DNA of 64,000 nt from a virus, in the IMG/VR virus record IMGVR_UViG_3300042197_000966, positions 1-64,000 of that record, one strand, 5' to 3'. The notes beneath the pieces are model-generated. The model searched no databases, was not told where the DNA came from, and was given only the letters and a program-made list of their open reading frames with translations. Positions 3,601 through 35,179 of this stretch are shown piece by piece. The position numbers and the translations under genes are program-made. Numbering within the stretch: the first letter of the stretch is position 1; each line of letters begins with the position of its first letter.

Positions 3601-6600
3601 AATTATTCAAAACGCATACTTATTTGCAAATGATACCCTCAGTCAACCAAATTCTGGTGCATACGGAGAAATTGTTGGAAATGTTGTAAGTGATAATGTT
3701 ATTGTATTAAAAAATGTTGTTGGTGTTTTCAATGGGACTGGAACATTCTCAGCAGCTATAAAAACTTTCTCTATTCTGGTTGATCAAGATAGTTCTTACA
3801 CTGCTGGCGCCATTTTATCTTTAACAGATGGCATTAATTTACCAATAGCAACAGCAGAAGTTTTAGAAACAACTTCTAGACAAAATGTTGTTAAGATTAA
3901 AGTTCTCAGTGGAACCTGGATTGTTGATGATGATTATTTCTTACAATCCAATAATTTGTTTAATACTTCTGGATCCAGAATTGTCAGTCTAACGTCTCTG
4001 AGTGATGGTCTCATACCATTTGATGTAAATCAAAATGTTGCATTGGTTGAGACAAGTAGTGAACATGGATTGGGTATTGATGATGAGGTAGTGATTAATA
4101 TTTTACCAGATGATGCAACTAAAACAAAGACATATTTTGTAAGAAAAAGATTATATCAAAAGGTAAAGTTTGTTTCTCCAAGATATTCTTCAACAATTGA
4201 TTATACTGGTATTGGAAGATTTGAAATTTTAAATGGTGGCGCATATTATACGCCAGGAACATATACAAATATACCATTGACTGGTGGATCTGGTACTGGC
4301 GCAAAAGCTAATATTACTGTTTCATCAGCTGGAATAGTTTCCTCAGTTGTTATTCAAGATGGAGGATCAGGTTATAAAAAATATGATTACTTAGGTGTTG
4401 ACGATGAATCTCTTTCTAGATCTGGATCTGCAAATGCTGGTAGTTCTAGATTAGTTGTATATCTAGATCATGTTGGATTTGCTGCATCTTCTACATCTTT
4501 AATTTTAGAGGATGCTTTGGGTCTTTCTTTAAATGATTATTTAATAATTGGAAAAGAAGTCATACGTGTTTCTGCTATCAATGGAAACAAATTGACAGTA
4601 TTGAGATCACAAAAAGGAACACAAGCAGCTGATCATTTTAATGGTCAAGTAGTCTCACTGTATGAAGAAAAATATAATTTTAGTAATAATTTTCAATTAT
4701 CATCTTCTCAGTATTCTGGATTTATCAAAACATATGACTACGAAACTCAAGAAGCAATAATTGTATTTAATTACACAACTACAAAATCAAACGCAGAAGA
4801 AGTTCAAATTAGTACAACTTTCTTTGATTCCAGTACTCCAAAAAAATTAGTTTCTGTTGTTTCTGCAGAAGATATTAGTTACAAATTTGAATTTTCTGAA
4901 GACAATTCTCTGTTCGTTCCAAATCCAACTATAAACATTCAAGAGTTCTACAAGTATAAATTTGATACATCACACTCGTCTCTGACTGGAACATACTTTG
5001 ATTTAAGTCCTAGTAAAACTTTTAATTTGATAACAGAAGAAAAAAATACGTCGTCTGTTTTACCTGGAAATCCTGGATCATTTACAGATGTAAAATTTGG
5101 ATTTGGACCAAGACTATCTTCAAATTCATATTTGAATAAAATAGGAACAAATTTTGCTAATTTTTATTATTTTGATAAAAATGGAATAGTCACATCTGAT
5201 GGTTCTTATTTGAAAATTATTCAAGATCCTCTTCAGGGAACCAAAAAAATTACATATGTAACTCCAACAAGATTTGTATATCAATTAGATTCAGTTCCTC
5301 TGTGGGATGGATCTGGATCAATATCTTATACAACTACTGGGCAATTTGCAATAGGTCAAATTAATTCATTTAAAGTTATTAACTTAGGATTAAATTATAA
5401 AAAAGCACCAATAATAGTTGGTTGTGATCCAAATACAAACTTTAAAGCAAAAGCAACAGTTCTATATGATTATTCTACAAATGTTGTTACTGGTGTCAGA
5501 ATAGATGACACTGGTTCAAATTATACAAATCCAAAAGTTTTTATAAAGAATGGAGATGGTGTTGATCTTTCTTTTAATGTTGTGGTAAGAGATGGTAAAA
5601 TATTCTCAATTACTGTAAGCAATCCAGGAAAAGGATATACATTTGCTCCAGAAATTGAAATCATTGAGGGTGATGTTGAAGCATATGTACAAAGTTCTAC
5701 AATTGGAGTTCCACAAAGCATCACGATTATAAAAAATGGAGGGGCATTCCATTTAGATAAAACAGTATCTTCATCATTTACATCAAAATATATTTTCTCG
5801 TTAGAAAATTTTTCGGGAGAATATCAAAAAGGAGAAGTCGTAGTCCAAGTAATAGATGGTGTTGAAGTTGCACGAGGAATTGTATCTGAATGGAGACGTG
5901 GTTCAAATTTATTAAAAATAGAAAAAATCACTGGTATTTTTAGGCAAGGATATCAAATTAAATCTATATTAAATTTTACTGTTGGTACAATAAAATCTGT
6001 ATTTGTAACTACGTTTGGCGCAGAAATTTCTAGTTTCTATGATAATCTTGGTTATTATACTTCTGATAGAGGAAAACTTGGAGTTGCAAATCAAAAACTT
6101 TTAGATAGTGATTTTTATCAGGACTATTCGTATGTTGTAAAATCAAAAACTCCAATTAATGTTTGGAGAGATTTAATTAAATCTACAACACACCCAGCTG
6201 GATTTAAATTATTTGGTCAAGTTGACATTGAAGGTATTGGAAGCACATCGATGCCTTCTCAACAAATTAATAAAAATGATCACTTTTCGATTATTCAACT
6301 CTGGGATCCAGCAAAAAATAAAGTTACTGTCGAAAATACGAGAAGAACAGTTACGCAAGTTATCCAAAAAATTGAAAACCAACGAATTAAGAGAGGATTT
6401 GGTTCTGCTGCACCATCAGAGTTTAATTTTAATGAATACATTTCTTTTGAAGTTAGTCTGGTGCAACCATTTAATGGATACTATGATAGTGATGGTAGAT
6501 TGCAAGGAAGAACGGTATTTGATCTAGAAGATAATAATGGCAACCCATTTACTCCATTCAATGCAAAATCTTTAATCATTACTTTGGATGGTATCTTACA

Positions 6601-9600
6601 AGAACCAGAAGTTGCATATACAGTTCAAGCAAATACTATTATTTTTTCAAAACCACCACTGGGACCAGGAGCAGAAAGAACAGGTAATAATTTAAACGAT
6701 ATTACTTCTTACAAGGGCGTAACTTTCTATGGTAAATATTTTTCTTTTAAAGATACTCAATACAATACAAGATATCTAAGAAAGATTAGAAATATTTTCC
6801 AAAGAAGTGGTAGATGGTTAGATGCTGCTAATCAAATAGAAAGAAACAAAACTTTCATTGTAGAGGAATCTATTGGATATGGAAAAAACAAATATCCGAC
6901 ATTGGATTGGAGCACAAAAACTGATGATTATCAAAGAGATATTGGTTATTTACTAGATGCTTATCAGCATGATGTTAGATTTGGTGGAAACACCAAAACT
7001 GTAGATTATGTTAATATCTTTAGGAATGATACTGATTATGATTACATTACGAAGAATAAAACAAAGTCTTTAGAAATATTTAAATATGCAACAAAACTTG
7101 CAAATCTTGCAGTAAGAAATTGGGATATTGTTGAGAATAATATTTCTTACACACAAGGTTCTTCTACTATCACAGTTGAAGATAGTGAGAGACTTGCAAT
7201 TGGAATGTATATTAGTTGCGGTAGAGCTTATCCAGCAAATACCAAGATTACTGCAATTAATAGCGCAACTCAAATTACAGTATCAAATAATGCCTTATCA
7301 ACTTCTGGTTCCGATCAGGCAACTTTCTATCTGAGTGGCATTAATAATGGAACTTTTTATGATGCATCAAATTTAATTCAAGCAAATAAAGAATTCCTGA
7401 TAGAATTTATTAGTGAATATATTTATACCAGCACCAATCTTCCGCAATCTGATAAAGAAAAATGTAAGAGAGATCTTGGATACTTAGTTGATGCTGTTGT
7501 TTATCATTTAAGATTTGGTGGAAATCAAAAGATAGTTGAATTTGCTCAATCTTATTATACATTTTCATCATATCCTTACGGAGAAGAACTTACTTATATT
7601 AATAGATCACCAGAAGAAACAAGCGCAGCAATACTTGCTTGGGATACTCTTAAAGATGGAATGATTCTCGCTATGAGAAATCAGCTGACTACTGGAGGAT
7701 CATATACTTCTATTCTACCAGTAACAGATAACACAATTTTAGTCGATCCAATTAATCCAGTTTGTCAAGAAGTTGCATCTAGTATCAATACAATGATCGA
7801 CATTGTAAAAGATATTATTGCGAGAGGATCTGGAGTAGTTTCAATTACTCCAATTAATACTAACAAATCTGGTCAATGGTCAACTACAACAACATATTCA
7901 AATTATAATTTAATACCAGATCCACTCATTCTTTCCTCAGAATGTGCTGATGTTGTTTCTTCTGTTAATTCTTTATATTCAAATGTAAAAAATATTTTAG
8001 ATAAGAAAACTGTCAAGAGAACATATCCAGATTATGTTGATGGCGAAAATAAAACTTTTGAATTATATTGGGATGACGGAAGTGAAGTTATAACTGAAGA
8101 AGATGAGGATCTATTTTTAACGATCAATGCTGTCTTACAGAGACCAAAATATACAGAGACATATCCAGGTTCTGATTCATATTACATCAATCGTGAAGTA
8201 ATACCTAATGAAATTGTATTTGATGTCGCACCAATATGGGATCAAGATTTTAGTGCAAAAAGCATTGGAGAACCAACAGCAGTTGAAAAAGTTGTTGGTA
8301 TAGGAGTTGGAAACTATAAAAGACTTACTATTGATACTAGTTTAGTCGATGGAATTAGTTCTGGTCCATTCTTGATACTTGATGTCGAAGACTTTACTGT
8401 ACAGAATATCGAAGAATCAACTTTCCTGTATGTATTTTTAGATGGTGTTTTACAGAGAGAAGGATATTCTTACATAGTTTCTGGTCCAAATATCTATTTT
8501 AATGTTCCTATTGTTAAGGAAATGAAAGTAGATATGAGATATTTGTATGGTCGTGATGTCGGTCAAGTTCTCAATATCTATGATTATAACCCAGACACAT
8601 ATTATGCGAAAGGAGCTGTAAGTTTAACTATTACAAGCGGTCTCTCTGATTTGTTGAAATATGAATGGGCTGGAAATAAAATTGGAGAACCAATACACGC
8701 ATATCAGATTAATGCAAATGGCACCTATAATATGATAGGTCAAATATCAGATGGATATGTTTCTGGTTCAAATATATTGAATTTTAATGTCTTTGGTGCA
8801 AAGGCATCTATTGACATCAGTAAACCAGTTTGGTTTGCCATACGTGGATTTTATAATACATTAAGAATAAGTGTAAATATCTCTGCTGCAGGTATTACAT
8901 ATGAATTAGATAGCACTGGTAAAACCATTCTTTCGGATAATGAGCAGATTTGGTCTGGAACATATCTAGGAAAAACATACAAGAGACCATTTATTTCTCT
9001 ATCAAATAATGATTTGATCAGAGTTGATGGGGAAGAAGGTTTTAGAAAAATCAAAAAATTACCAGGAAGAGTTACTAGTAAAGAGCAAAGACAATACGAA
9101 CAAGTTTCAAATTCATTCTATGGAACTGTTGATATTGAAACTTACAACGGTATTACAAGGGGAGAGGGATTAAGTGTAGTAGCTAAAGTTGAAAACGGAA
9201 AAGTTACAAAACTTGAATGGAATAGAAGAAGTTACGAACCATTAACTCAACCAACTGCATATCAATATTATACTCCTCCAATTCTTAATTTTATTCCAGT
9301 TGATGGAAATGGTGGAGGAGCAAGAGCAAATGTTCTTGTCAGCAAAGGTCAAGTTATCAGCATTGATATTATTGATGGCGGATCTGGATATACTCAAGCT
9401 CCAAAAGTTGTAGTAGCAAGAGGATATGATATTCTCACAGAAAGAGATATTGGTGTTTCATTAATTAATATTGGTGTCAATTCATTTGTTGAACATGGTG
9501 GGTATACAGCATTCTCATCTATTGATGTATTAGGAAATCAAGTTTCTGGAGTAAATTCGTTTACATCAATTTTCTTTGATAGTCCTATATCTACTGATAG

Positions 9601-11650
9601 AGTAATTACTGCTCAGATACAACTTTTAAGATCTGCTGGTAGTAACTTAACTAAGAAACAAACACAATTAATTGTTCAAGATGCCCCATTTGCAAGTGAT
9701 ATTAAAAAACTGGATGTATTTACAAATACAAATCAATATATTAGTGTCATTCGTGGAAGACTTGCTGATGTAATTACATCTTCTATTGTTACAACCAATA
9801 GACAAATTACAACCAGTTTTGAAAATCTAATACCAAATGATGCATTATCAAATGTAAATTACTATACTACTGGCGGATTTTTACAGGTTGATCTTGCTAT
9901 CGCTGATAAGGTTGTTTATGTTGCAGATACAAGCAAGTTTAAATCTAATGGATATCTACTAATCGGTAATGAAATTGTTAGATATTACAGAAAAATTAAT
10001 GATCGTTTCTTAAATGTAGAAAGAGGTCAGAGAAGCACAACTGCCCAATTCTGGGCAGCAGGAACAGTAATATTACAACTACCAGATCCAGCATCTAGCG
10101 TATTTGGTGGAGTTGTGATTGTAGAATCTGCATCTCAAACTGCTACTATCAAAGGTGGTTTGGGAACGGTTTCTGCTTCAACAACAAGAACAGAATACCA
10201 AGACATTACCCCACCAGTATCAATAGCGACTACAAGTAGAATTATTGAAATTGATATTGCTCCATCAGCAAAAGCAATAACAATGAGTAGTCTGGTAACA
10301 ACCAGAACTTCTAGATCTTATGAAACTACCTCATCTTCTATAAAGTCATTTGTAACCACAGGTTCCGTAAAACAATTAGAAGTTGATATTCAATCAATCA
10401 CTTCCAAAGTTTCTTCACTATTAACAAAATTTGAACTTTTACTGATACCACCACCAACTGGAGTTGTTGATGGATATGTAGAAAATCTGTACTGGACAGA
10501 TCCTATTTTACAAAGAAGTGGTTCTTTTGTTACTCTTGATAATTCAATTTATGGTAGACATGTAGTTCAAAGAAATAATTTGATTGTTCAAGTCAGAAAT
10601 CTTTCTACTACTGATGCAGAATATATTGGAACATACGAAGTTACCAATGCTGGTCATACAATAAATCATTTCAATATTCTAGCTGATGATGGTGTATCAA
10701 ATGTTTCTGGAATTACATTAGAAGAATTGGAAAGATATTATCCAACTTTATCAATAGAAGATTTTGAATTAAAAGGAAAATCTAGTTATACAACAGATGG
10801 ATTTTATTTTGTATTAATGCCACCTTCAATTCAAAATCCTGTAGTAGTTCCATTCTCAACTGGATCTATAGCATCAACTATTGAAGTCCCAACAACTACA
10901 TTCTTCCCAACAAGTGGTTATCTATTTACTGGATCAGGTGGTCTTATTCAATATACTGGTAAGACTTCTACATCATTTACTGGTTGCACATCGGTAAGGG
11001 GATCAACTACTTTAATTGGAAATTCTGTAAGTTTTGATGGAACTGGTTACTTAAATATTGCTTCAAATAATGCTTTCAATTATGGAACTGGAGATTTTAC
11101 CATAGAGTTTTATTGGAAACCAAATGCTCTTAGCGGAACGCAAGTTTTGATAGATCAAAGAACTGCATCAACAGATGTTTCAATTTATGTTGAAATGAAT
11201 TCTTCTGGAAATATCAGGGTATTTGTTAATGGAGCTTATAGGATTACATCTTCAAATACGTGTAGCACATCTCAAGACAACCATGTTGCCATATATAGAT
11301 CTTCTGGAATTACAAGAGTTGCTATCAACGGAACTGTAACTACCACATCAACATACACCGATACTAACAACTATGCTTCTAAACCATTTAGAATTGGAGC
11401 TTCTTGGACTGCCAGTTCCTTTATTTCTGGTAGAATTAACAGTTTGCGTGTTGTAAAAGGAACTTCATTGTATTCTAACACAAACTTTACTCTTCCATCT
11501 CAAATAACAAACATTTCTGGAACATCTTTACTAACATGTCAAGGAAACTCAATAAAAGATAGAAGTTCTAATAATCTATCTATTACAGTAAATGGAGGTG
11601 CTGTCGTTTCCAATACTGGAAAGGAAATCATTCCTTTTGAAATCACCTAA
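695..11650 (+). CDS. gp7: Giant baseplate wedge initiator gp7-like protein (3651 aa) with YHYH-like, phycobiliprotein-like and C-terminal LamG/ConA-like domains
   Basis: N-terminal ISTLIESQLPEFI...LIKNIQKFYKAKGT and internal DSDFYQDYSYVVKS...THPAGFKLFG motifs of cyanophage gp7. Positioned between gp6 and gp8. Confidence 0.8.
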   Translation: MAVKTKRISTLIESQLPEFISNEYELFGKFVEKYYEAQEVQGGPLDILSNLQKYLDIDYYEKSLLQQNTTLVTSITSSSTTVVLEDASGFPEKNGYVQIGDEIIFYGERTGNTLTNCSRGVSGNIALGDLYEKSSFVGTTSVAHSSGDLVLNISNLFLYAIVKNFESQYLGSFPEKYLRGEVDKRTLIKNIQKFYKAKGTDSSIKFIFNTIVTQDSTNKPEVYKPRDFVYKSSESDWISVYAIKAKIVSGDPKNLIGKQIVQIETEEYQYASAIVDNVFPEGTSDNEQIWNIVVAPETVNGSFAISTKTRLEKQLQSNSGFGKRVNVFSTVGWDLAGEILIGNETISFDDKNATQFIIKSRGSNPATYEIGDPVYKPVILQGSNVKLLTLGVVYNFVPENAQPYSYTGDEVQVSDPGFKTIDPKIVITGSNQPRWFLSQGSSPDVPTIPSINTELSEISTDISAIFEDDQYYYIASSSYPSHKILDGSVVTEKLLDQKLLRIIRKEATRTTEIYKTPKRDVGILLNGVPIFGYKDEESVRFGLLEEIKINTQGTGYAKPPFVLLDGVPNQARALLSGQVVEKIIVDTNTIFPRTPEVLITSGRGAVVRAVVTKGKVTSLIIDNPGEFYSSPPTVRIRDRAGRGRFADFTAVVNTDGKITDFIKNEEGNFYDQATVIVDIIPVGNGASATPFLKEWNKNRFVKLSDNLDTEYGHVFKNYNNVLEYGYGQVANPKSLRISLNDNLNATLVEPVTKTHSPIIGFAYDGNPIYGPFAYENPLDPQSSIIRMTSSYSLNGSRPGGPGLSEYPIGTFVNDFKYTHKSGTLDENNGRFCVTPDFPAGTYAYFLTIDSNQIPQFPYVIGENFYSLPVDSNYNSNISQNDIPKKSKRLFTPGMPGNGDGVIAQISDVKPGFVDSIELQNSSSNFSVNSKVYFDNSRTEGQDAEAIVSSVVGENVNYLQSKENKVVQLTIIQNAYLFANDTLSQPNSGAYGEIVGNVVSDNVIVLKNVVGVFNGTGTFSAAIKTFSILVDQDSSYTAGAILSLTDGINLPIATAEVLETTSRQNVVKIKVLSGTWIVDDDYFLQSNNLFNTSGSRIVSLTSLSDGLIPFDVNQNVALVETSSEHGLGIDDEVVINILPDDATKTKTYFVRKRLYQKVKFVSPRYSSTIDYTGIGRFEILNGGAYYTPGTYTNIPLTGGSGTGAKANITVSSAGIVSSVVIQDGGSGYKKYDYLGVDDESLSRSGSANAGSSRLVVYLDHVGFAASSTSLILEDALGLSLNDYLIIGKEVIRVSAINGNKLTVLRSQKGTQAADHFNGQVVSLYEEKYNFSNNFQLSSSQYSGFIKTYDYETQEAIIVFNYTTTKSNAEEVQISTTFFDSSTPKKLVSVVSAEDISYKFEFSEDNSLFVPNPTINIQEFYKYKFDTSHSSLTGTYFDLSPSKTFNLITEEKNTSSVLPGNPGSFTDVKFGFGPRLSSNSYLNKIGTNFANFYYFDKNGIVTSDGSYLKIIQDPLQGTKKITYVTPTRFVYQLDSVPLWDGSGSISYTTTGQFAIGQINSFKVINLGLNYKKAPIIVGCDPNTNFKAKATVLYDYSTNVVTGVRIDDTGSNYTNPKVFIKNGDGVDLSFNVVVRDGKIFSITVSNPGKGYTFAPEIEIIEGDVEAYVQSSTIGVPQSITIIKNGGAFHLDKTVSSSFTSKYIFSLENFSGEYQKGEVVVQVIDGVEVARGIVSEWRRGSNLLKIEKITGIFRQGYQIKSILNFTVGTIKSVFVTTFGAEISSFYDNLGYYTSDRGKLGVANQKLLDSDFYQDYSYVVKSKTPINVWRDLIKSTTHPAGFKLFGQVDIEGIGSTSMPSQQINKNDHFSIIQLWDPAKNKVTVENTRRTVTQVIQKIENQRIKRGFGSAAPSEFNFNEYISFEVSLVQPFNGYYDSDGRLQGRTVFDLEDNNGNPFTPFNAKSLIITLDGILQEPEVAYTVQANTIIFSKPPLGPGAERTGNNLNDITSYKGVTFYGKYFSFKDTQYNTRYLRKIRNIFQRSGRWLDAANQIERNKTFIVEESIGYGKNKYPTLDWSTKTDDYQRDIGYLLDAYQHDVRFGGNTKTVDYVNIFRNDTDYDYITKNKTKSLEIFKYATKLANLAVRNWDIVENNISYTQGSSTITVEDSERLAIGMYISCGRAYPANTKITAINSATQITVSNNALSTSGSDQATFYLSGINNGTFYDASNLIQANKEFLIEFISEYIYTSTNLPQSDKEKCKRDLGYLVDAVVYHLRFGGNQKIVEFAQSYYTFSSYPYGEELTYINRSPEETSAAILAWDTLKDGMILAMRNQLTTGGSYTSILPVTDNTILVDPINPVCQEVASSINTMIDIVKDIIARGSGVVSITPINTNKSGQWSTTTTYSNYNLIPDPLILSSECADVVSSVNSLYSNVKNILDKKTVKRTYPDYVDGENKTFELYWDDGSEVITEEDEDLFLTINAVLQRPKYTETYPGSDSYYINREVIPNEIVFDVAPIWDQDFSAKSIGEPTAVEKVVGIGVGNYKRLTIDTSLVDGISSGPFLILDVEDFTVQNIEESTFLYVFLDGVLQREGYSYIVSGPNIYFNVPIVKEMKVDMRYLYGRDVGQVLNIYDYNPDTYYAKGAVSLTITSGLSDLLKYEWAGNKIGEPIHAYQINANGTYNMIGQISDGYVSGSNILNFNVFGAKASIDISKPVWFAIRGFYNTLRISVNISAAGITYELDSTGKTILSDNEQIWSGTYLGKTYKRPFISLSNNDLIRVDGEEGFRKIKKLPGRVTSKEQRQYEQVSNSFYGTVDIETYNGITRGEGLSVVAKVENGKVTKLEWNRRSYEPLTQPTAYQYYTPPILNFIPVDGNGGGARANVLVSKGQVISIDIIDGGSGYTQAPKVVVARGYDILTERDIGVSLINIGVNSFVEHGGYTAFSSIDVLGNQVSGVNSFTSIFFDSPISTDRVITAQIQLLRSAGSNLTKKQTQLIVQDAPFASDIKKLDVFTNTNQYISVIRGRLADVITSSIVTTNRQITTSFENLIPNDALSNVNYYTTGGFLQVDLAIADKVVYVADTSKFKSNGYLLIGNEIVRYYRKINDRFLNVERGQRSTTAQFWAAGTVILQLPDPASSVFGGVVIVESASQTATIKGGLGTVSASTTRTEYQDITPPVSIATTSRIIEIDIAPSAKAITMSSLVTTRTSRSYETTSSSIKSFVTTGSVKQLEVDIQSITSKVSSLLTKFELLLIPPPTGVVDGYVENLYWTDPILQRSGSFVTLDNSIYGRHVVQRNNLIVQVRNLSTTDAEYIGTYEVTNAGHTINHFNILADDGVSNVSGITLEELERYYPTLSIEDFELKGKSSYTTDGFYFVLMPPSIQNPVVVPFSTGSIASTIEVPTTTFFPTSGYLFTGSGGLIQYTGKTSTSFTGCTSVRGSTTLIGNSVSFDGTGYLNIASNNAFNYGTGDFTIEFYWKPNALSGTQVLIDQRTASTDVSIYVEMNSSGNIRVFVNGAYRITSSNTCSTSQDNHVAIYRSSGITRVAINGTVTTTSTYTDTNNYASKPFRIGASWTASSFISGRINSLRVVKGTSLYSNTNFTLPSQITNISGTSLLTCQGNSIKDRSSNNLSITVNGGAVVSNTGKEIIPFEIT

Positions 11651-24900: not shown

Positions 24901-25771
24901 TTCAGCAAGATTGTCTAGAACAGAACTTGTTTTAACAACTGCAAATAAAATTACTTCGAGAGACACTGATGGAAAACAGTTGTGGAAACCAACGACTGCT
25001 TACACTCTGAATACATTTGTTTATTACTTAGATAACATTTATCAAGTAACCACGGCAGGAACTACTGGAACTGTAGCACCTACTCACACTACTGGAGCTG
25101 TTGCAAACGGAAGTGCAACTTTAACTTGGGTAAGCGATAGTTACGCAAATCTAGAAATACGTGGAGATGAAATTAAGTTAGGAGTAAGAGTTAATATTGA
25201 CGATAAATTGAGTGTATATGGTTATGCTACAAATAACTTAATTTTTGAAAGTGGATTGAACAACACCAAGTTCGCATTTGGAAATATCTTGGGAGTTCCA
25301 GATACTCTCTTAACTTTAAATGGAACAACTGGTTCTTTAGTAATTAATAGAAATTTTGATGTTTCTTCAACTGAAGATAATATTAGCATCTTAGATAAGA
25401 CCCTAAAATTCTTTGAACTGACTGATATTCGCAATGAAATGACATCAACAACTCTAGTCAAAGGAACCAGTAATGTCGCAAACGTGACTGTATACAGTCC
25501 AACAGTTCATGCATCTGCAAAGATTTTAGTATCTGCCGATAATCTAACAACTGGTGATAAACAGATTGTTGAATATAACGTCATACATAAAGGAACAGAT
25601 ATTGTTGCTGTTCAATATGGAAATATAAATACGGCTAACAGCGATCTGTTTGTTGGATCATTTGATTTTGATGTGTCTAATAATGTCAGATTTACTGCAA
25701 CTCTTGCAACTAGTGTTGCATCTGGTGATAATGTGAAAATAGTTGTTAATAAAACACAAATCAAGAAGTAA
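21917..25771 (+). CDS. Gly/Thr-rich virion fibre/structural protein with cupredoxin-like and CBM-like modules
   Basis: [15 protein letters not shown] start, GSGY/GGSGSGA repeats, [14 protein letters not shown] and [14 protein letters not shown] motifs of cyanophage fibres. Confidence 0.7.
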
Positions 25772-26335: not shown

Positions 26336-29300
26336 ATGAGTTTAGAATTTAATGCTGACAAACAGTATCTTAAGGGAACCAAACCTTACGTTCTAGGAAC
26401 AAGCGAATTTACGATACGTGCTGGAACAGGAGCAAGTGAAAAAGAGGTTATGCGTTGGCAGCTAGATGCAACGCAGCAACTTACCCGTGTAGGTATTAAC
26501 AGAAATGGTCAGCAAGTTGAAAAAATTACATTAACAAATACTGGTGGTGGTTATTCTTCTACTCCAACAGTTACGATCAGTGCTCCAAATTTAGCAACTG
26601 GAAGGCAAGCGACAGCAAGTGCCTTGATTAACTTAGGAACAGTTGCTGCAATTATTGTAGATGATCCTGGCAATGGATATACATCTACCCCAACTGTTAC
26701 TATTTCTGGCGGTGCTGGTAATGGAGCGACTGCTACAGCAACTCTTAATAGTATTGAATATGAATTAGATGTTAATGGTGCTATAAGAACTTCCACGTCC
26801 ATTATTTCTGATACAGCAAGAGTTATTAACCTAGATTTCGTTAATCTAACAACTGCTGATGGAACATTTCGTGCTCCATATTTAAAACTATATGCTAATA
26901 ATACTGGAACATCCTGGTTAGCATCTACGGTTGTTAGCAAAAATACTTTTAGATATTTTGGAGATAATATCTATCGTGTAAATCAAGATGGAACAACTGG
27001 AACAAATGCTCCAATTCATACAAGTGGTGAAGTCGCAAATGGAACTACAATACTGGAACATGTAGGATATAGAGTAAATAGTCCTTCTTTGCCTCATTAT
27101 GGAATAACGGGTGATGGAATATTCCCAAGATCTATTACTCCTCTTCAAGGTGATAGATCAAATAAAATTGCTACAACTGAATATGTTTTAAGTCTTGCTA
27201 CAAATGACGTTGGTGGTCGTATCTATGTTTCTGAACAAATTGGAGATGACGCAAACGATGGTCGTTCGGCAGTAAATCCAGTTAGAACAATTAAAAGAGC
27301 CTGTCAAATTGCTACTGGAACTGTTGGAGTAAGAGAAACTGTTATTATTTCTGGTGGCGATTATGTAGAAGATAATCCAATTTCAATTCCACCTGATTGT
27401 TCTATTGTAGGAGATTCACTTCGCATTGTTAATGTCAGACCCCTGAACGGTGGTAAGCACATGTTCAAGTTTGCCGACAAAAATTATATTACTGGTATTA
27501 CATTTAGAGATCGCCTAGATTCAGCTGGAAATCCCATACAGACATGGGACTATGCTTGTGCATTTGACGATAAGCAAAGAATTTACTATGATTCAAATAG
27601 TGGCGGTGACTATGGTAGGGATTTTCCTATTGGTTATCAAATATTTGGAAGACAAGAATACAGAATTACATTTTCAGAAAATACTGGTAATGCTCAAATA
27701 GCAGTTGGAGAAACTATTTGGGGAGAAACAAATAACGCAAATGCCACTGTAACTAATGTATTCTATAATGCAACAACTGGAGCATCTGCATATGATACAG
27801 GATATATCGATGTTGTTTTAAATCAAAATAGTAACCAGTTAAGCACTGGAGATAGATTTAGATATGGTGGTCCTGCTCCAAGTCTAGGAACTTTTACACA
27901 ACCTTGGTTAGCTAATACATCGTTTCCTGCTAATGTTTATCTATGGACTACTGGAACTAGTGGAAATCCTGGTCGCGTATATTTAACGACTGCGGCAGTT
28001 ACGACTGGAGCTGCTACTCCATCACATACATCTGGTACAGTTTCAAATCTTTTATATATCAGAGATCGTCTCCAATTTACTTCTTCAACAATTACTTCTA
28101 TTAGACCAGAAGGAGAAATTGTATCAAAGGGAGAAGATTTAATATCTCAACTTCCAATTACAAGAATTGATGCTTCGGTTGCAACATATAACACATATGG
28201 TGGTGTAGTAATTTACACCAATCCACTTGTAGGTGCATCTAACGTTCATAACTTCAAAGAAAATGAAGAGATTGAAATTTTTGGTTTGCCAACATCGTCA
28301 CCAGATCTTTCTTGGTTGAATGGAAAACAACGAGTTTATAAAATTATTGAAGATGCTGATGCTAGATCAAGAAGAATTGTTATTGCAAAGGAAGGAAATA
28401 GAGTAGGATTTACACAGAGCAACTATGCACCACTATCTGCTTATGTAAGATCATATTCATATTACTTTACTCTTTCCCTTCTCAATTCACCATATAAGTT
28501 TCCAATAACAGATTATGTAAGTAGAAGATATCAAGATGCTTGTAATTTAATTCGCAATAATCTTGAATTTATTAAAGATGAAACTTATCAAATTATCGAA
28601 GATGAATTTAGTCCCAATTTTACTATAAGTTCTATTGTACCAACAACTGGAACTGGTTTGGATCTAGGAAAAGTAATTGTAAGAATAACAACATCTGTTC
28701 CTCATGGGTTCTATGTTTCTGATAATGTCACCATTAAAAAGACAACATTTGCATCTGGTCTTTTAAATGGAAATTATATTGTTACAAATAGAGTAAGCTC
28801 TACAGTATTAGAAGTTCAATATACTGGCACAGTTGCAACATTAGGATTAACTTCTGGAACTACTTATAATAATGCAGCAATTGGAACATCTTCTTTTATA
28901 CAAAGAGGATTTGTAATTCCAAGCGAGACAAAGTGCCGTAGAGACATCGGGCATTTTGTCAATGCCATCATCATGGATCTTGAGTATGGCGGAAACTACC
29001 ATGTGGTAGAAGCTGCAAAGAGATACAGAAACAATGGTGTTCTTGGATATGTTGGTAACGAACTTGCATACACTGTAAGATCTCTTGAGGTTGCTAGGAG
29101 ATTGTGCATTTATGCAATGCGTAACTGGAGATTGGAAGATGGTAAATATTCTCAACCAACTTATACTCCAAAATTCTCATCATTAAGTCGTTACTTTGAT
29201 TTAACTGTAACAGAAGATACTTCTGGTGCAACCACAAATGGATTTACTTGTTCTGATGTAGCAAGTGCTATTACTACATTAGCATATCTTTATACTGATG

Positions 29301-32300
29301 TTTTATGCAATAAGACAGTAACCAATAGTCCTACCGTAGGAACTATGGAGGATGCTGGTTACCTCATCATGGCAAACGCGGACTTCATTGCTTCAGAAGC
29401 ATCTGAGTTTGCCTATGCACAGTTCCCAGTCGTTGCAGCGTCGCTTACAGATGACCAGAAGAGAAAGTGTAAGAGAGATATTCGTTATATCCTTTCTGGA
29501 CTGACAAGAGACCTTATTGGTGGTGGTAACAGTGGAATTGTTACGGCAGCAGAATCATATTTTACAGGAAATACTTTATCTGGCATTCCATCGAATGAAC
29601 TTGCTGCTACTCGTTCTGCATTTTCAAGAGCAAGAGATCTTTCAATTCAGGCAATTCGTAACTGGAGTAATGGAACTGTTACTACAAGGACCGCAACAAC
29701 TGCAACATATAACTCAACCAGTGGCGTTCTTACCGTAACATTCCCAACTCCAACCACTCCAGTCACAACTGCACATAAATTAGCATTCAAAGAACGTGCA
29801 TTAACATTTAGTTGTGCATCTGATGGTGGTGGAAACTTAGCAAGTCCTCAACCAACAGATAGAAACTATGGTAAGAGTTTATCAATTTCCAATGTAACAA
29901 CTGGTGGTGGAAATCAAACGGTTACTGTTAATGTTGGTGCTGCTGGAACGGCAGCTGGCGTTGCTCATACATTTGTAAGTGCATTGGCAAATGGAGTTAT
30001 CATTATCTACGATCCAGTAACTCCAACATACGAAACAAACATCACAAGAGTAGAAGATTGGAACATTGCTCTATATGGTTCAAATCCACTTTGCGCTAAC
30101 GTAGCATCTGCAATTACTACAGAATTTACAACTCTTGATAACATTCTAGGTGGCACTGTTCTTCCTGGAGCAACAACAAAAACATATGGAACTTTATATG
30201 ATCCAACGGTAACATATCCAACAGGTGTCATGATTGACAATGATGGATATTATATTACACCAAGAGGAAGATGGGATGATCTTCCAATCATTGAAGCTTC
30301 TCCATACATTCAAAATGCTTCAGTAATCTCATTTAAAGGTGGAGGTGGATGTGAGGTTGATGGATCTAAAGTCAAACAACCAAACTGTCCTTTCCCTGGA
30401 TTAGAAGCAGATGGTTCTGCAACTTATCCAAATCAAGGTAAATCAATGGTTGCGGCACAATTTACGATTGTGTCATTTGGTGGAACTGGTTACAAAATTG
30501 TAAAAGATGGATATACTCAGTTAGTTTCGGTATTCGTTCTCTTCTGTAAAGATGGAGTATTAGCAGAATCTGGTGGATATGTATCAATTACAAACGCCGC
30601 TACAAACTTTGGTATCTATGCTCTACGTGCTGTGGGTTATAGAGAAAATGCTTATTCTTTTGATACTGGAATAATTACAAACGTAAGTGAAACAGTAACT
30701 GGAAGAACTATTCTAACAGTAGGAAGTCTTGGTAGAAAACCATTAGAGCACTATGTTCTTAAAATCGATGGTTATACAAATCAAGGCGAATCAATCGAAT
30801 ACTTTATTGAAAAAGTAACATCCGCTTCTGTTGGACCTATTTTCACTGCAACGTTTGAAGTCAATGCTGCTATGTTATTAACGAGAACTTCCGATGGAGC
30901 TCTCTTTAATTCTCCACTATCTGGTGCAGAATTTACAGGAAAAACTATAAAACTACATAGACCATCTATTGTTAATTCCTCTGGTCATACTTGGGAATTT
31001 GCTGGAGCAGGAACAAATTATAAAGCTCTACCAGAAAATGGCGGTAAGAAGATCGAAGCATATGAGCAGGTATCGGAAAACTATGGTCGTGTTTATACAT
31101 CTGGTACTGATGAACTTGGTGACTTCAAAGTAGGTTATTTTGCTAAGATTGAGAACAGAACTGGTAACATTACATTTACTGGAACGGTTTCTATCTCAGA
31201 AGTTGAATTCCTCAAGCTAAAAGGTGGAGATGTTGTTGTTACTGGATTTACTTCTGATAACACCCTAGGCGGTGCTGCATCATCAAATAGTTTGCTTCCA
31301 ACCCAAAAAGCAGTTAAAGATTATATCACAACTAACCTAGGAACATATATTAATAAACCATATTCAACCAATGCTGTTCCAAGAGCACTTGTTGAACTAA
31401 CCGATAGCGGAAAGATTTCAATTGATCAAATCCCTGCCTTAAGACCATTCAGTGTGTATACTGTTGCCGACCAAGCAGAGAGATTAAAACTAGAAGGAGC
31501 ACTTGCTGGTGACATTGCAATCGAGCAAGACACATCAACATCGTATATTTTAAATAATGATTTAACAAGTCTATTCTTAGGATTTGCTGTCAATCAGGCA
31601 CTTCAATTTACAATAAACAATCTCTTTGTTGGAACGCCAGGTGGAGGTCAAATTCAAGCAAAAGAGTATAGGCAAGGTGTAGTTTATCAAATCAATATTA
31701 CAAATGGTGGAAGTGGTTATTCTAGTGCTCCTAGCGTAACGTTTAGTGCTCCACAGCAAGGTGGTGGTGTTACCGCTACTGCAGTAGCGACAGTTGCTAA
31801 TGGTCAGGTTACTACCATTACTATCACTGAGACTGGAGGATTGAAAGGTGGTAGAGGATATACTTCTGCCCCAACGATTACCATTGCTTCTCCTGGTGGA
31901 GCTGGAACAACTGCTACTGCAACATGTTTGATTGAGAGCAGATTGTATGGTAATATAACAAACAATATAAAGATAGTAGATATAGATACAATACAATCTT
32001 CCAATGGAACTCCAATAACTGTTGATATCAATCGTGTTGTAAATACTTCAGCATTTACAGCATCAAACTGGGTATCACTCTCCTCAAATCAAGTTGCGGC
32101 AGATCAAATTACTTCTGGTGTAATTGCCACAACAAGACTAGCAAGTAATTCTGGTGCTGCTAACTCAACAACCTTCTTAAGAGGTGATCAAACATATGCG
32201 CCAGTTATCCAGTCTATCAAAGGTGTTGAAACAAGATATTTTGTAAAGACTTCAAATCAGACAAATTCTGGTGGTCAGCAACTGTTCTTTACAGAAGCAC

Positions 32301-35179
32301 AGGCAGCTACAATCCTAAAAGGTCATTCAATTACTGCGGCGCCAGTTAATGCTGGAATTGCTCCAGGAACAACGGTTACTTCTGTAACATTAAATGCTGG
32401 TTTATACACTGTCAATATCAATAATCCAACAACTGCAAATATTCCTGTTGGAACAGTTATTGAATTTGGGAGAGCAGCATCTCCATTAGTTATTGATACT
32501 CCTGTCGCTCTTACAAATTACATTGCGAGCGTTATCATTGTTAATAGTGGAACAGGATATACAAATGGAACTTATACCAATGTAACTCTCCAAGGAGGAG
32601 ATGGTACTGGATGTAAAGCTGATATTGTTGTTTCTGGAAATGAAATCATTTCAGTTACAGTTACCGATGGTGGAACTGGTTATATTTCTGACTTCCTTGT
32701 TACTGGATTTTCGACAAGTCTTGGTGCTGGAAACTCGTTAGTTCTTTCCGCAAAAATTAATACAGTTCTTAAGTATTACGGTAATACTACTTTTGATGTC
32801 TCAAAGGTTTCAGATTCTGCAACTGATAGTTATTCCACAGTCGGTGCAGCAAGATTTTTAAGATATCAAAACACAACTGATTTGCAGGCAGGATTTAACA
32901 TCAATGCTGACGGTAATGGTTCTATTAGTCTTAAAACTGGGGCTTTAAGTGGATTGAATGCCGATAAATTGGATGGAGAACATGGTATTTTCTATCTAAC
33001 TGGTTCAAACTTCGTTGATGGTAGTATCACCCCATCCAAGTTACTTGGTGGTCAAGAATATAGTATTAATATCAGCGGTATTGCAAGATCTGCAAATAGA
33101 TTGAATTCCACTGATGAAGGATCGAATGATCCACTACCAATTAATTCTTCTGAAGGTGTAGTTGCACAATTAAGAAACAATTCTGCAAACGGATTGAATG
33201 ATGGTGGTACAAGAAACCTAGTTCTAAATCTCAGAAATGGTATTGATGCTACTTATGGTGGCGCAAGGCAATTAGCACTTACGGATAACAATAATCTTTG
33301 GATCCGTGGTTCTGGAACGGCACTAACACAATGGAGCACTTGGTATAAAGTATGGACATCTGGAAATGATGCTTCTGCTGGTCAAGGTTCTGGTCCAGAT
33401 GCTTTTAGATTGAACAATAAGGTACAAGAATATTATAACACTGCTTATAATATCAATTATGGAACTCTATCAGATAATAGAATTCCATATTATCAAACTG
33501 CAAAAGCATTTGACGATAATTTAACTATTCGTTGGCAGAAAACACAAGTTGTATATGAATTTTATATTCCTGGTGTTCTATTAACTGGTGGAAGTGGAAC
33601 ATATCAAATTGGAAATACTCTGAAGTTATTCCAATCAAACGGTGTTGAAAATGGTCAAGTTGTTGTTCTTGCAGTAACAAATAATTCAGCAACTGCAACA
33701 GATACAAGTCTTCGTTGGTCAATAATCAGAGGAAGATTAACGAGTGGTAGCATTAATGTTGGTGGAAATCCTTCCATCAAGATTGGATTGGATATTTCAA
33801 ATAGCTCTGTATTTACTGATTATACTGGTAATACTGAGAATACAATTGAAGTTGCTAAATTGCAATCTACATCTGGAACTGCTCTCCTAAAATTAGGCAG
33901 AACAGACGGTGTTGCTTCAAACCCAGCTATTCATTTTAACAGTAGTGCAACTACAGCAACAAACTACCACGTTGCAATGATTGCTTCTGGTGGAACTGCA
34001 ACTGATGGTAGTGGAAGTCTTAATATTATTGCTGGAACAAATAATGCTGTAACTATTAACAACAATGCTATTTGGAACGCTGGCAATATATCATTTAATA
34101 CTGGTTTTACTGGAGCTAATTATAACACTGGAGCAAATAGCACTGGTGTTATTAGAGATGCTAGCGGCAATGCTGCTTTCAACGGAATTACATTAGGAGC
34201 ATCTGGAACTGGTGTTCTAACTGGATCTGCTTCTCTCAACGTATTGAAGGCAGGCGATACGATGACAGGTCAGTTAAAGATTGCCTTCAATAGTGGTCTA
34301 GGTATTAGTGAAACTGGTGGAACTGGAGCAAGACTGACGATTACTTCATCTGCTTCTGGTTCTATTCTAAATGTTGTTGATAACTCAGCACTAATCTTCC
34401 AAACCGACAGTGGCGTAGAGCAAGGTAGATTTAGGAATAATGCTGCTGGTGGTGGATTGCTACTAACTACAAATCAAGCTGGTGGTGTTCCACTAACTCT
34501 CAATAGACAATGGGATGGTGGTAGATTACAATTCATTTACAATAGTGATGCCACCACCAGAGGTGAAATTGGCATGACCTATGCTGGTGCCAATGGCAAC
34601 ATGTATTTGTGGATGGGAAGCAACCTAAACTCGACTGGAAGCGGTCACACAAATGCTACGCAAGGCAATTCGGCGTATTCTTCTTGGGTAACATATCACC
34701 ATTCAAACTCTGATTACTATCAAGTTGGCAGAATTGCTAGTGGAACTTATACATCTGCTTTACATATCAATGGTAGCAGACAAGTTGGTATTAACACCAC
34801 AACCAATACAACTTATAACCTACAAGTTAATGGTTCCTTCGCTGCTACTACCAAGTCATTCCGCATTTCTCACCCAACCAAAGAGAACCATGACCTTGTT
34901 TATGGTTCGTTGGAAGGACCAGAGCATGGCGTATATGTTCGTGGCAAGTCATCTGACGTTATTGAGTTACCTGATTACTGGGTTGCTCTTGTCGATGAAA
35001 ACACCATCACCGTTCAACTCACTCCAATCGGCAATCATATGTCATGGGTAGAGAAGATTGAAGATAATAAGATCCTTATTGGTGGTGGCGAGGCATTCTA
35101 CTTCGTTCAGGCAATGCGTAAGGATATCGAGAAGTTAGAGGTTGAAGTTGAGTTGCCTGTTGAGGAGGAGCAAGAGTGA
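26336..35179 (+). CDS. Long tail fibre / host-recognition protein (2947 aa) with beta-helix-like, CBM-like and two phycobiliprotein-like domains
   Basis: IYVSEQIGDDANDGRS...VRTIKRA (beta-helix lead-in), GLNADKLDG fibre motif, and C-terminal KSFRISHP...SLEGPEHGVYVRG...IELPDYW...TVQLTPIG domain common at fibre ends. Confidence 0.75.
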   Translation: MSLEFNADKQYLKGTKPYVLGTSEFTIRAGTGASEKEVMRWQLDATQQLTRVGINRNGQQVEKITLTNTGGGYSSTPTVTISAPNLATGRQATASALINLGTVAAIIVDDPGNGYTSTPTVTISGGAGNGATATATLNSIEYELDVNGAIRTSTSIISDTARVINLDFVNLTTADGTFRAPYLKLYANNTGTSWLASTVVSKNTFRYFGDNIYRVNQDGTTGTNAPIHTSGEVANGTTILEHVGYRVNSPSLPHYGITGDGIFPRSITPLQGDRSNKIATTEYVLSLATNDVGGRIYVSEQIGDDANDGRSAVNPVRTIKRACQIATGTVGVRETVIISGGDYVEDNPISIPPDCSIVGDSLRIVNVRPLNGGKHMFKFADKNYITGITFRDRLDSAGNPIQTWDYACAFDDKQRIYYDSNSGGDYGRDFPIGYQIFGRQEYRITFSENTGNAQIAVGETIWGETNNANATVTNVFYNATTGASAYDTGYIDVVLNQNSNQLSTGDRFRYGGPAPSLGTFTQPWLANTSFPANVYLWTTGTSGNPGRVYLTTAAVTTGAATPSHTSGTVSNLLYIRDRLQFTSSTITSIRPEGEIVSKGEDLISQLPITRIDASVATYNTYGGVVIYTNPLVGASNVHNFKENEEIEIFGLPTSSPDLSWLNGKQRVYKIIEDADARSRRIVIAKEGNRVGFTQSNYAPLSAYVRSYSYYFTLSLLNSPYKFPITDYVSRRYQDACNLIRNNLEFIKDETYQIIEDEFSPNFTISSIVPTTGTGLDLGKVIVRITTSVPHGFYVSDNVTIKKTTFASGLLNGNYIVTNRVSSTVLEVQYTGTVATLGLTSGTTYNNAAIGTSSFIQRGFVIPSETKCRRDIGHFVNAIIMDLEYGGNYHVVEAAKRYRNNGVLGYVGNELAYTVRSLEVARRLCIYAMRNWRLEDGKYSQPTYTPKFSSLSRYFDLTVTEDTSGATTNGFTCSDVASAITTLAYLYTDVLCNKTVTNSPTVGTMEDAGYLIMANADFIASEASEFAYAQFPVVAASLTDDQKRKCKRDIRYILSGLTRDLIGGGNSGIVTAAESYFTGNTLSGIPSNELAATRSAFSRARDLSIQAIRNWSNGTVTTRTATTATYNSTSGVLTVTFPTPTTPVTTAHKLAFKERALTFSCASDGGGNLASPQPTDRNYGKSLSISNVTTGGGNQTVTVNVGAAGTAAGVAHTFVSALANGVIIIYDPVTPTYETNITRVEDWNIALYGSNPLCANVASAITTEFTTLDNILGGTVLPGATTKTYGTLYDPTVTYPTGVMIDNDGYYITPRGRWDDLPIIEASPYIQNASVISFKGGGGCEVDGSKVKQPNCPFPGLEADGSATYPNQGKSMVAAQFTIVSFGGTGYKIVKDGYTQLVSVFVLFCKDGVLAESGGYVSITNAATNFGIYALRAVGYRENAYSFDTGIITNVSETVTGRTILTVGSLGRKPLEHYVLKIDGYTNQGESIEYFIEKVTSASVGPIFTATFEVNAAMLLTRTSDGALFNSPLSGAEFTGKTIKLHRPSIVNSSGHTWEFAGAGTNYKALPENGGKKIEAYEQVSENYGRVYTSGTDELGDFKVGYFAKIENRTGNITFTGTVSISEVEFLKLKGGDVVVTGFTSDNTLGGAASSNSLLPTQKAVKDYITTNLGTYINKPYSTNAVPRALVELTDSGKISIDQIPALRPFSVYTVADQAERLKLEGALAGDIAIEQDTSTSYILNNDLTSLFLGFAVNQALQFTINNLFVGTPGGGQIQAKEYRQGVVYQINITNGGSGYSSAPSVTFSAPQQGGGVTATAVATVANGQVTTITITETGGLKGGRGYTSAPTITIASPGGAGTTATATCLIESRLYGNITNNIKIVDIDTIQSSNGTPITVDINRVVNTSAFTASNWVSLSSNQVAADQITSGVIATTRLASNSGAANSTTFLRGDQTYAPVIQSIKGVETRYFVKTSNQTNSGGQQLFFTEAQAATILKGHSITAAPVNAGIAPGTTVTSVTLNAGLYTVNINNPTTANIPVGTVIEFGRAASPLVIDTPVALTNYIASVIIVNSGTGYTNGTYTNVTLQGGDGTGCKADIVVSGNEIISVTVTDGGTGYISDFLVTGFSTSLGAGNSLVLSAKINTVLKYYGNTTFDVSKVSDSATDSYSTVGAARFLRYQNTTDLQAGFNINADGNGSISLKTGALSGLNADKLDGEHGIFYLTGSNFVDGSITPSKLLGGQEYSINISGIARSANRLNSTDEGSNDPLPINSSEGVVAQLRNNSANGLNDGGTRNLVLNLRNGIDATYGGARQLALTDNNNLWIRGSGTALTQWSTWYKVWTSGNDASAGQGSGPDAFRLNNKVQEYYNTAYNINYGTLSDNRIPYYQTAKAFDDNLTIRWQKTQVVYEFYIPGVLLTGGSGTYQIGNTLKLFQSNGVENGQVVVLAVTNNSATATDTSLRWSIIRGRLTSGSINVGGNPSIKIGLDISNSSVFTDYTGNTENTIEVAKLQSTSGTALLKLGRTDGVASNPAIHFNSSATTATNYHVAMIASGGTATDGSGSLNIIAGTNNAVTINNNAIWNAGNISFNTGFTGANYNTGANSTGVIRDASGNAAFNGITLGASGTGVLTGSASLNVLKAGDTMTGQLKIAFNSGLGISETGGTGARLTITSSASGSILNVVDNSALIFQTDSGVEQGRFRNNAAGGGLLLTTNQAGGVPLTLNRQWDGGRLQFIYNSDATTRGEIGMTYAGANGNMYLWMGSNLNSTGSGHTNATQGNSAYSSWVTYHHSNSDYYQVGRIASGTYTSALHINGSRQVGINTTTNTTYNLQVNGSFAATTKSFRISHPTKENHDLVYGSLEGPEHGVYVRGKSSDVIELPDYWVALVDENTITVQLTPIGNHMSWVEKIEDNKILIGGGEAFYFVQAMRKDIEKLEVEVELPVEEEQE

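Follow-up and report, generated by a model that had tools for sequence, protein, structure and literature searches.

Why should the tail fibre of a virus contain domains that look like light-harvesting proteins of its host? This question is raised by a 64,000-nucleotide (nt) stretch of viral DNA, positions 1 to 64,000 of IMG/VR record IMGVR_UViG_3300042197_000966 (hereafter, the window), which is part of a 76-kb viral contig that is ~39% complete. A single open reading frame (ORF) in the window, 26336..35179 (+), encodes a protein of 2947 amino acids (aa), P0001, and an initial annotation made from the DNA letters had proposed that this protein carries two phycobiliprotein-like domains with cysteines of the bilin-attachment type. 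Judged by its sequence, P0001 is a giant tail-fibre protein of a T4-like cyanomyovirus infecting marine cyanobacteria: it matches phrog_5342 ('tail fiber protein') in the PHROGs with an E-value (E) of 0, is similar over its full length to annotated cyanomyovirus tail-fibre proteins, and sits within a block of virion structural genes. Its 336 relatives are 1,600-5,200 aa long and include tail fibres of Synechococcus phages ACG-2014e/i, S-RIM44 and S-PM2. The genes around P0001 make up a T4-like virion block (baseplate wedge, more giant structural proteins, head closure, tail sheath, portal and major head protein), and the portal protein has its nearest isolates in S-RSM4 (87% identity) and ACG-2014e.

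Homology and predicted fold of the fibre units

A hidden Markov model (HMM) of the family revealed two helical units of ~150 aa in the fibre, at aa 729-996 and 1003-1272, and in each of them a single domain is inserted. The peptides and cysteine codons quoted in the initial annotation were all present in the ORF at the positions it gave, and the domain limits it had estimated (~730-990 and ~1005-1275) are close to those drawn by the HMM (aa 729-759 plus 859-996, and aa 1003-1131 plus 1226-1272). Copy 1 reads DACNLIRNN from aa 734 (nt 28535), ETKCRRDIG around Cys867 (nt 28934) and TCSDVASAITTL at Cys972 (nt 29249). The corresponding peptides of copy 2 are DAGYLIMAN from aa 1006 (nt 29351), RKCKRDIRY around Cys1045 (nt 29468) and LCANVASAITTE at Cys1253 (nt 30092).

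The likeness to phycocyanin could in principle reflect chance or convergence (i.e., an unrelated helical bundle that happens to bear a K-C-x-R-D...GG string), and the window sequences alone leave room for this explanation. Single-sequence phmmer searches of PDB with aa 721-1277 returned 25 matches, all of them phycocyanin or phycoerythrin alpha chains, at E 0.03-0.9; these followed the pattern ...F-P...K-C-x-R-D-I-x-Y...G-G against phycocyanin alpha residues 39-105. PF00502 was the sole Pfam family matched, with 13.1 bits for copy 2 (E 0.098), 13.6 bits for the two-copy stretch and no match for copy 1. The window sequences by themselves thus reach E 0.03-0.1 only, under the Pfam threshold, and the confident sequence alignment spans ~60 residues only. 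However, significance climbed when independent profiles were used. Profile A1, made of 23 divergent compact units from metagenomic giants, matched PDB at a best E of 1.2e-4, and its top 32 matches were all phycocyanin alpha. Profile A3, made of 23 two-Cys units, gave 149 PDB matches with a best E of 6e-7, and all 60 among the matches listed were phycobiliproteins; 10 of the 23 A3 units also matched PF00502 individually (best E 1.5e-4). We then compared A3 by hhalign with CpcA and CpcB alignments built from 120 cyanobacterial cpc loci fetched by motif (29 CpcA sequences in hhalign). A3 aligned to CpcA with a probability of 96% (E 1e-9 in global and 5e-9 in local mode) and to CpcB with a probability of 58-78% (E ~1e-5). 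The claimed resemblance to phycocyanin is therefore beyond chance at the level of profiles.

Template-free AlphaFold modelling of one compact unit and of window copy 2 yielded models with a predicted local distance difference test score (pLDDT) of 88.7 and a predicted template modelling score (pTM) of 0.83 for the former, and pLDDT 87.8 and pTM 0.79 for the latter. Both models show the phycobiliprotein-type globin fold (helices B, E, F, G and H). In a structural search of 48,161 chains, the top 8 for each model were all phycobiliproteins (Z 13.2-16.4, root-mean-square deviation (rmsd) 1.6-2.7 Å, 116-148 residues aligned). The compact unit matched phycoerythrin beta (Z 15.5, rmsd 2.1 Å over 139 residues), far-red allophycocyanin (Z 15.2, 1.6 Å over 119) and ApcE (Z 14.2); copy 2 matched phycoerythrin beta (Z 16.4, rmsd 2.2 Å over 148 residues, model 1-273 against chain 31-184), allophycocyanin (Z 14.8) and ApcE (Z 14.5). 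Photocobilin and haem globin sensors ranked below the phycobiliproteins with both models (Z ~12). The best Foldseek matches were also mostly phycobiliproteins, at a probability of 1.00; for the copy 2 model, the two best E-values belonged to flavohaemoglobins, which overlapped poorly (template modelling score 0.24, rmsd 16-19 Å). Because the entire ~140-residue core superposes on phycobiliproteins at an rmsd of ~2 Å, ahead of all other globins, and the A3 matches listed from PDB are confined to this one family, we consider a chance or convergent resemblance extremely improbable. The globin/phycobiliprotein fold that had been claimed is thus borne out by sequence profiles and by fold search of the predicted models, and on these grounds we regard the homology of the module to the phycobiliprotein/BBAG globin superfamily as established.

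The models align only from phycobiliprotein residue ~31-34, which indicates that the N-terminal X-Y helices, with which phycobiliproteins form the alpha/beta monomer, are absent from the modules. Consistent with this, hhalign alignments start at CpcA residues 27-39, and compact units that recur every 140-180 aa have no space for X-Y. Identity between module and phycobiliproteins is ~15-25% only, and the modules are too diverged and too differently built to be filed as ordinary PF00502 members.

By profile and predicted fold, the two fibre domains are members of a large, previously unnamed family of phycobiliprotein-derived globin-fold modules. With aa 721-1277 as HMMER query, the whole library yielded 503 protein clusters, many of them giants of 2,000-7,000 aa with up to 36 matched stretches, and an iterated local HMM resolved ~1,800 units across 269 collected proteins, with a maximum of 35 units in one protein. 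Compact units are all-helical and ~150-175 aa long, follow one another most often at a spacing of 140-180 aa, and are mutually 20-35% identical only. The window itself holds two further units in a second giant virion protein of 3651 aa (ORF 695-11650, plus strand), upstream of a baseplate wedge gene (phrog_438). We propose that the module corresponds to the phycobiliprotein globin core (approximately residues 32-164) minus the N-terminal X-Y helices that make alpha/beta dimers, and that cyanophages and some uncultured freshwater phages string such modules bead-like into their tail-fibre and baseplate proteins. Tandem matches to the first ~35 unit positions only were also seen, directly upstream of complete units, in S-PM2 (NC_006820.1 56047-56400), S-RSM4 (NC_013085.1 172615-172971) and S-CAM1 (HQ634177.1 73254-73616), and resemble a truncated or helix-only run of repeats.

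Conserved cysteine sites of the module

The initial annotation had described the first cysteine of each copy as being of the bilin-attachment type. In agreement with this, Cys867/Arg869/Asp870 and Cys1045/Arg1047/Asp1048 align residue-for-residue with Cys84/Arg86/Asp87 of phycocyanin alpha, which places the Cys-x-Arg-Asp (CxRD) motif in register with the phycocyanin site. CXRD is the covalent-attachment and hydrogen-bonding motif of phycobiliproteins, and BBAG-1/3 globins that bear it bind bilins without lyases (Rockwell et al., PMC10151467). Cys-x-Arg-Asp, together with an Asp 14 residues further on (Asp+14) and a Tyr at +30 (Tyr+30), was invariant in all alignments made. Across 1,673 aligned units, Cys was present in 97%, and among the Cys-bearing units Arg was found in 92%, Asp in 100%, Asp+14 in 98.5% and Tyr+30 in 99.6%.

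If these residues form one site, they should be lost together. In the 45 Cys-less units, where Cys is frequently replaced by Tyr or Phe, Arg was retained in 44%, Asp in 76%, Asp+14 in 69%, Tyr+30 in 47% and Thr in 36%, while a control Asn of the first helix had not decayed alongside the missing Cys (84% against 66%); because the units are related, Fisher p-values for this comparison are inflated. That the other invariants drop together with Cys and the control Asn does not suggests one coupled functional site rather than general decay.

The second cysteine (Cys972 and Cys1253) lies in a C-x-x-V-x-S-x-I motif at the start of the last helix. It is a speciality of the fibre clade, where it occurs in 206/241 units (85%) against 74/1,346 elsewhere (5%). 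In global and extended local hhalign alignments, it pairs with CpcB Cys153 (GDCSsL.SEI); HMMER alignments to PDB stop short of the last helix and thus do not place it. The second cysteine is a putative bilin-type site: it stands at the head of the last helix, and its pairing with CpcB Cys153 lies in a low-confidence part of the alignment. If the last helix of the copy 2 model is aligned without gaps to the chain end (273 on 184), model residue 254 (Cys1253) would fall on residue 165 of C-phycoerythrin beta. In this 184-residue chain, we take residue 165 to be the site served by the bilin lyase CpeT.

A different use of the paired cysteines would be structural, and the initial annotation had listed it as a result that would refute a bilin role: Cys867/972 and Cys1045/1253 could be intradomain disulfides that stabilise an extracellular fibre. 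Both cysteines do occur in 206/241 fibre-clade units, and the second Cys is very rare where the first is missing (2/66). Family-wide, however, 1,243 of the 1,521 units with a first Cys (82%) have no second one, and in 233 of 300 compact units the CxRD Cys is the sole Cys, so it is not conserved as a disulfide partner. The two positions also match the 84-type and 153/155-type chromophore sites, which are distinct in phycobiliprotein beta subunits and lie far apart in known phycobiliprotein structures. We therefore rejected the disulfide as a general explanation and consider it highly improbable for the fibre pairs.

Cyanophages, bilin genes and light

The module is restricted to cyanophage-type viruses, where it lies in virion structural genes. 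Searching 50,697 phage records by tblastn, we found matches to window copy 2 in 310 records and to a 9-unit metagenomic protein in 251. All matched records are named Synechococcus phage, Prochlorococcus phage, Cyanophage or 'Marine virus AG-345', and the matches lie in genes annotated as tail fibre, short tail fibre, gp7 baseplate wedge initiator or structural protein. Fold matches in BFVD were likewise to cyanophages or uncultured phages. No phage of an identified heterotroph had a unit among these 50,697 records; each unit-carrying isolate is a cyanophage, and the outcome that the initial annotation had named as telling against a bilin role, a module equally common in phages of non-phototrophs, is not what these records show.

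Cyanomyoviruses carry CpeT, a bilin lyase of the T type (Gasper et al. 2017, as cited in PMC10452541), and T-type lyases serve the beta-153-type cysteine (PMC10452541). In the literature, phage haem oxygenase (HO), ferredoxin-dependent bilin reductase (FDBR) and CpeT are viewed as host-directed auxiliary genes, carried by myoviruses only (PMC10452541). The initial annotation had raised co-occurrence with cpeT/pebS as a point to check. Among 21 complete cyanomyovirus genomes, 13 have modules and CpeT, two have modules only, none has CpeT only, and six (P-SSM2, P-SSM5, S-SRM01, S-PRM1, S-CAM9 and RN05-S) have neither, i.e., CpeT is present in 13/15 module-bearing and 0/6 module-less genomes (raw Fisher ~5e-4). 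On a portal tree, these counts correspond to three module-state changes, two CpeT changes and 2-3 independent contrasts, with one major clade having both traits throughout. Co-occurrence with CpeT is thus strong in the raw counts but indistinguishable from inheritance once ancestry is taken into account, and for the bilin reductases it is not seen at all. The nearest isolates of the window, S-RSM4 and ACG-2014e, have CpeT and lack FDBR. CpeT was the only one of these genes sought on the 76-kb contig of the window, ~39% complete, and gave no match there. Bilin reductase is encoded by GU071092.1 (P-SSM2), HQ632825.1 (P-SSM5) and MH629685.1 (S-PRM1), but no modules or CpeT-family gene were found in these genomes by the searches used.

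All of these genes come together in an uncultured jumbo phage, IMGVR_UViG_3300034050_000451 (L174/L204; 270,865 bp, CheckV 100%). At least 13 units lie in one of its proteins, of 2,778 aa, and a single unit in another, of 292 aa; its HO and FDBR genes overlap (L204 7147-8288, minus strand), and a CpeT-family gene is present. GroEL and thymidylate synthase are also encoded, and neither psbA nor hli was found in its 270,865 bp. Several contigs share the HO, FDBR, CpeT and unit genes of this phage and represent one lineage, and a reverse search from its FDBR recovered the same lineage only. A search for FDBR among 46 other viral contigs that bear modules was uninformative, since almost all of them are 7-50% fragments. 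For phages of presumed non-phototrophs that carry HO and FDBR, the authors who described them 'can only speculate' about a role and mention BBAG-type globins as one possibility (PMC11480375).

Published adsorption phenotypes provide a second comparison. P-HM2 and P-HM1 do not adsorb in the dark, adsorption of S-PM2 is light-dependent independently of host photosynthesis, and dark adsorption is seen with P-SSM2 and the podovirus P-SSP7 (PMC6628666). P-HM2 (6 module matches) and S-PM2 (13) both also carry CpeT, and P-SSM2 and P-SSP7 carry neither, so that module presence agrees with phenotype in 4/4 phages. This concordance is a lead and not a test.

Based on these results, we hypothesize that the fibre and baseplate carry phycobiliprotein-derived modules with bound bilin. 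This is the best explanation overall, although we hold it tentatively and give it slightly less than an even chance. Each module would take up a bilin in the infected cell as a thioether on the CxRD cysteine; the bilin would be phycoerythrobilin or phycocyanobilin, made by host or phage enzymes, and attachment may be autocatalytic, as in ApcE and BBAG globins, or may proceed via host lyases. In the fibre clade, a second bilin could be joined to the last-helix Cys (beta-153/155-type), for which the phage T-type lyase CpeT would be the natural candidate. A virion built in this way would bear chromophores by the tens to hundreds, on both fibres and baseplate. Their most likely use would be light-gated adsorption through a light-driven conformational change in fibre or baseplate; alternatively, bound bilin may be photoprotective or purely stabilising. 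That cyanomyovirus particles are biliproteins, with CpeT as a dedicated second-site lyase and a virion photoreceptor that permits adsorption in light only, seems to us rather unlikely as a complete package.

Several observations weigh against bilin-carrying modules. The window domains score under the PF00502 gathering threshold (13 vs 22.2 bits). ACG-2014f and S-T4 have modules without CpeT, and with 2-3 independent contrasts only, the association of CpeT with modules is inseparable from shared ancestry and not significant; phage FDBR shows no association with modules in the cyanomyovirus genomes. The adsorption concordance covers four phages from two clades only. The family has invariants foreign to phycobiliproteins (Asp+14, Asn after GG, Tyr+30 and Thr), which could mean that its cleft has been reshaped, or that a network of side chains and not a bilin occupies it. 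Finally, we know of no report of coloured or fluorescent cyanophage particles; full-text literature searches returned nothing for or against such particles, and no paper on phycobiliprotein-like domains in phage structural proteins.

Many of the same points favour a chromophore-free structural relic, the main rival to bilin attachment. Here, a captured phycobiliprotein gene would now supply rigid helical spacers or beads in fibres and baseplate, and Cys-Arg-Asp with Asp+14 and Tyr+30 would be a buried polar or packing network needed for folding. The family-specific invariants (Asp+14, Asn, Tyr+30, Thr) that are lost along with Cys fit such an internal network too, and a very high copy number (up to 35 per protein), missing X-Y helices and loops that host inserted domains are in line with a structural repeat, as are the CpeT link that is not significant after phylogeny and the CpeT-less module carriers S-T4 and ACG-2014f. 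Against this, an extracellular protein would not usually keep a lone Cys at 97%, over repeats that are 20-35% identical only, if that residue served structure alone; the family occurs only in phages that infect bilin-making hosts or make bilin themselves; and the retained triad is the exact bilin-contacting one in every relative of known function (PMC10151467). We consider the relic a substantial possibility, though one well short of an even chance. Taken on its own, bilin attachment to the modules is a well-motivated reading, and we put it at about even odds.

The cleft might instead serve another purpose, as a host-surface adhesin, in non-covalent binding of a bilin or other tetrapyrrole, or as a source of Cys cross-links between fibre subunits. 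The modules do sit in host-recognition organelles (fibres and baseplate), the common replacement of Cys by Tyr or Phe suggests room beside it, and globin folds bind diverse ligands (haem sensors and photocobilin, Z ~12). We know of no precedent among phycobiliprotein relatives, however, the Arg and Asp partners are specifically the bilin-contacting pair, and there is no positive evidence for another ligand; we consider such uses improbable.

If modules with bound bilin act as a virion photoreceptor, this would explain both light-dependent adsorption and the presence of bilin synthesis and lyase genes in phages, including ones without photosystem genes. Three questions would become directly testable: why some cyanomyoviruses need light to adsorb, independently of host photosynthesis; what the natural substrate of the phage-encoded CpeT lyase is; and why haem oxygenase and bilin reductase genes occur in phages, some of them believed to have non-phototrophic hosts (PMC11480375). 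The phycobiliprotein/BBAG superfamily, whose origin is described as unresolved (PMC10151467), gains a large, very diverse and virion-embedded viral branch. The modules are also small, candidate lyase-independent bilin-binding domains that might serve as fluorescent tags. Even if no bilin is bound, they would clearly show that a virus had captured a light-harvesting protein of its host and put it to new use in building the virion.

Features of the window and comparison with known systems

The four units of the window and the parts of the two fibre copies are listed in the table.

Table. Position of the phycobiliprotein-like units and of their inserts in the window.
Feature	Position	Strand	Basis
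Tail-fibre-like giant P0001, 2947 aa	26336..35179	+	Single frame; PHROG 5342, E 0
Copy 1 N-terminal helices, aa 729-759, approximately the phycobiliprotein helix B region	28520..28612	+	HMM A3 positions 3-33, E 7e-8
Copy 1 insert, aa 760-858, in the loop that links helix B to the CxRD helix	28613..28909	+	Between the two HMM segments of copy 1; not in compact units
Copy 1 CxRD helix to last helix, aa 859-996; Cys867-x-Arg869-Asp870, second Cys972	28910..29323	+	HMM A3 positions 35-170, E 1e-42
Copy 2 helical core, aa 1003-1113; Cys1045-x-Arg1047-Asp1048, Asp1059, GGN, Tyr1075	29342..29674	+	HMM A3 positions 5-129, E 6e-40
Copy 2 insert, aa 1114-1225, beta-rich domain in the loop ahead of the last helix	29675..30010	+	AlphaFold strands at model residues 115-226
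Copy 2 last helix, aa 1226-1272, starting at Cys1253, approximately helix H	30011..30151	+	HMM A3 positions 117-165, E 1.6e-5
Unit in ORF 695..11650, aa 2037-2158, Tyr replacing Cys (DDYQRDIGY)	6803..7168	+	HMM E 1.7e-25
Second unit in ORF 695..11650, aa 2218-2378, KCKRD and second Cys helix PVCQEVASSINT	7346..7828	+	HMM A3 positions 3-167, E 1.3e-39

The copy 2 model places the core helices at residues 3-108, the part that aligns with phycocyanin alpha residues 39-105, and the last helix at 253-272; in an alignment of 37 sequences, C46, R48, D49, D60 and Y76 (model numbering) are invariant. By fold, the copy 2 insert weakly resembles beta domains in tail proteins of phages (N4 tail, Sf11 tail and phi92 endosialidase; Z 6.5-7.1) and is missing at the same place in the relatives L002, L013 and L025; no similarity was detectable between the inserts of copies 1 and 2. 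Among collinear fibre homologues (P0018, P0023, P0039, P0040, P0053 and others), the count of units can be two or three, the first helices and the CxRD helix can be separated by very long insertions, and copy 2 can be free of its insert. This variation in unit number and inserts suggests that the loops are hotspots of domain insertion. In the second giant, the unit at 6803..7168 is apparently without the last Cys-helix.

Between the baseplate wedge gene and the fibre lie ORFs 13611-21707 (+; 2698 aa) and 21917-25771 (+; 1284 aa), in neither of which the family HMM found a phycobiliprotein-like unit; the latter has PHROG matches to virion structural protein and baseplate wedge subunit. A short repeat, G-G-G-Y-S-S-x-P-T-V-T-I-S, stands at either end of the N-terminal half of the fibre (26336-26800 and ~32480-32700; aa ~60-140 and ~2050-2120) and recurs in ORF 43484-44614; it gives rise to PHROG matches common to the head-closure (Hc2) gene and other virion giants. 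The C-terminal ~150 aa of the fibre (34709-35152, aa 2792-2939) match PHROGs 28536 and 17490, of unknown function, and may be a domain that acts in assembly or as a chaperone. An acidic tail, EVEVELPVEEEQE, closes the protein, and PF13884 was found in one relative.

How do the modules compare with known systems? The phycobiliproteins (PF00502) are the closest, CpcA by sequence and phycoerythrin beta, allophycocyanin and the ApcE bilin domain by fold. Like them, the module has a globin-type core with identical helix order, and its E helix bears K-C-x-R-D-[IV]-G-Y...G-G, matched position by position to Cys84, Arg86 and Asp87; the second Cys that starts the last helix of fibre-clade modules may have its counterpart at beta-153/155. 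ApcE carries a B-E loop insertion and phycoerythrin beta a G-H loop insertion, and the loop insertions of the modules lie at the same two places. Unlike phycobiliproteins, the modules have no X-Y helices, so no alpha/beta heterodimer or disc is expected; they are embedded, often in tandem, within virion proteins of 1,000-7,000 aa, they have the extra invariants Asp+14, Asn, Tyr+30 and Thr, and their chromophore is putative.

Phage CpeT would be a possible partner of the modules and not a relative, and the second Cys resembles the target site of T-type lyases. Photocobilin/photoglobin and globin-coupled sensors share a globin-like fold with the modules and use it for sensing (Z 11-12), but match more poorly than phycobiliproteins, are without CxRD, and bind biliverdin plus B12, or haem. 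BBAG globins (Rockwell, Martin, Lagarias 2023, PMC10151467) are stand-alone phycobiliprotein paralogues outside light harvesting, with CXRD shared by BBAG-1/3, and their likeness to the modules is judged here from their published description. Unlike the modules, they are small cytoplasmic proteins of bacteria and do not form part of virions; like the modules of the 270-kb uncultured phage, their genes are linked to HO and FDBR.

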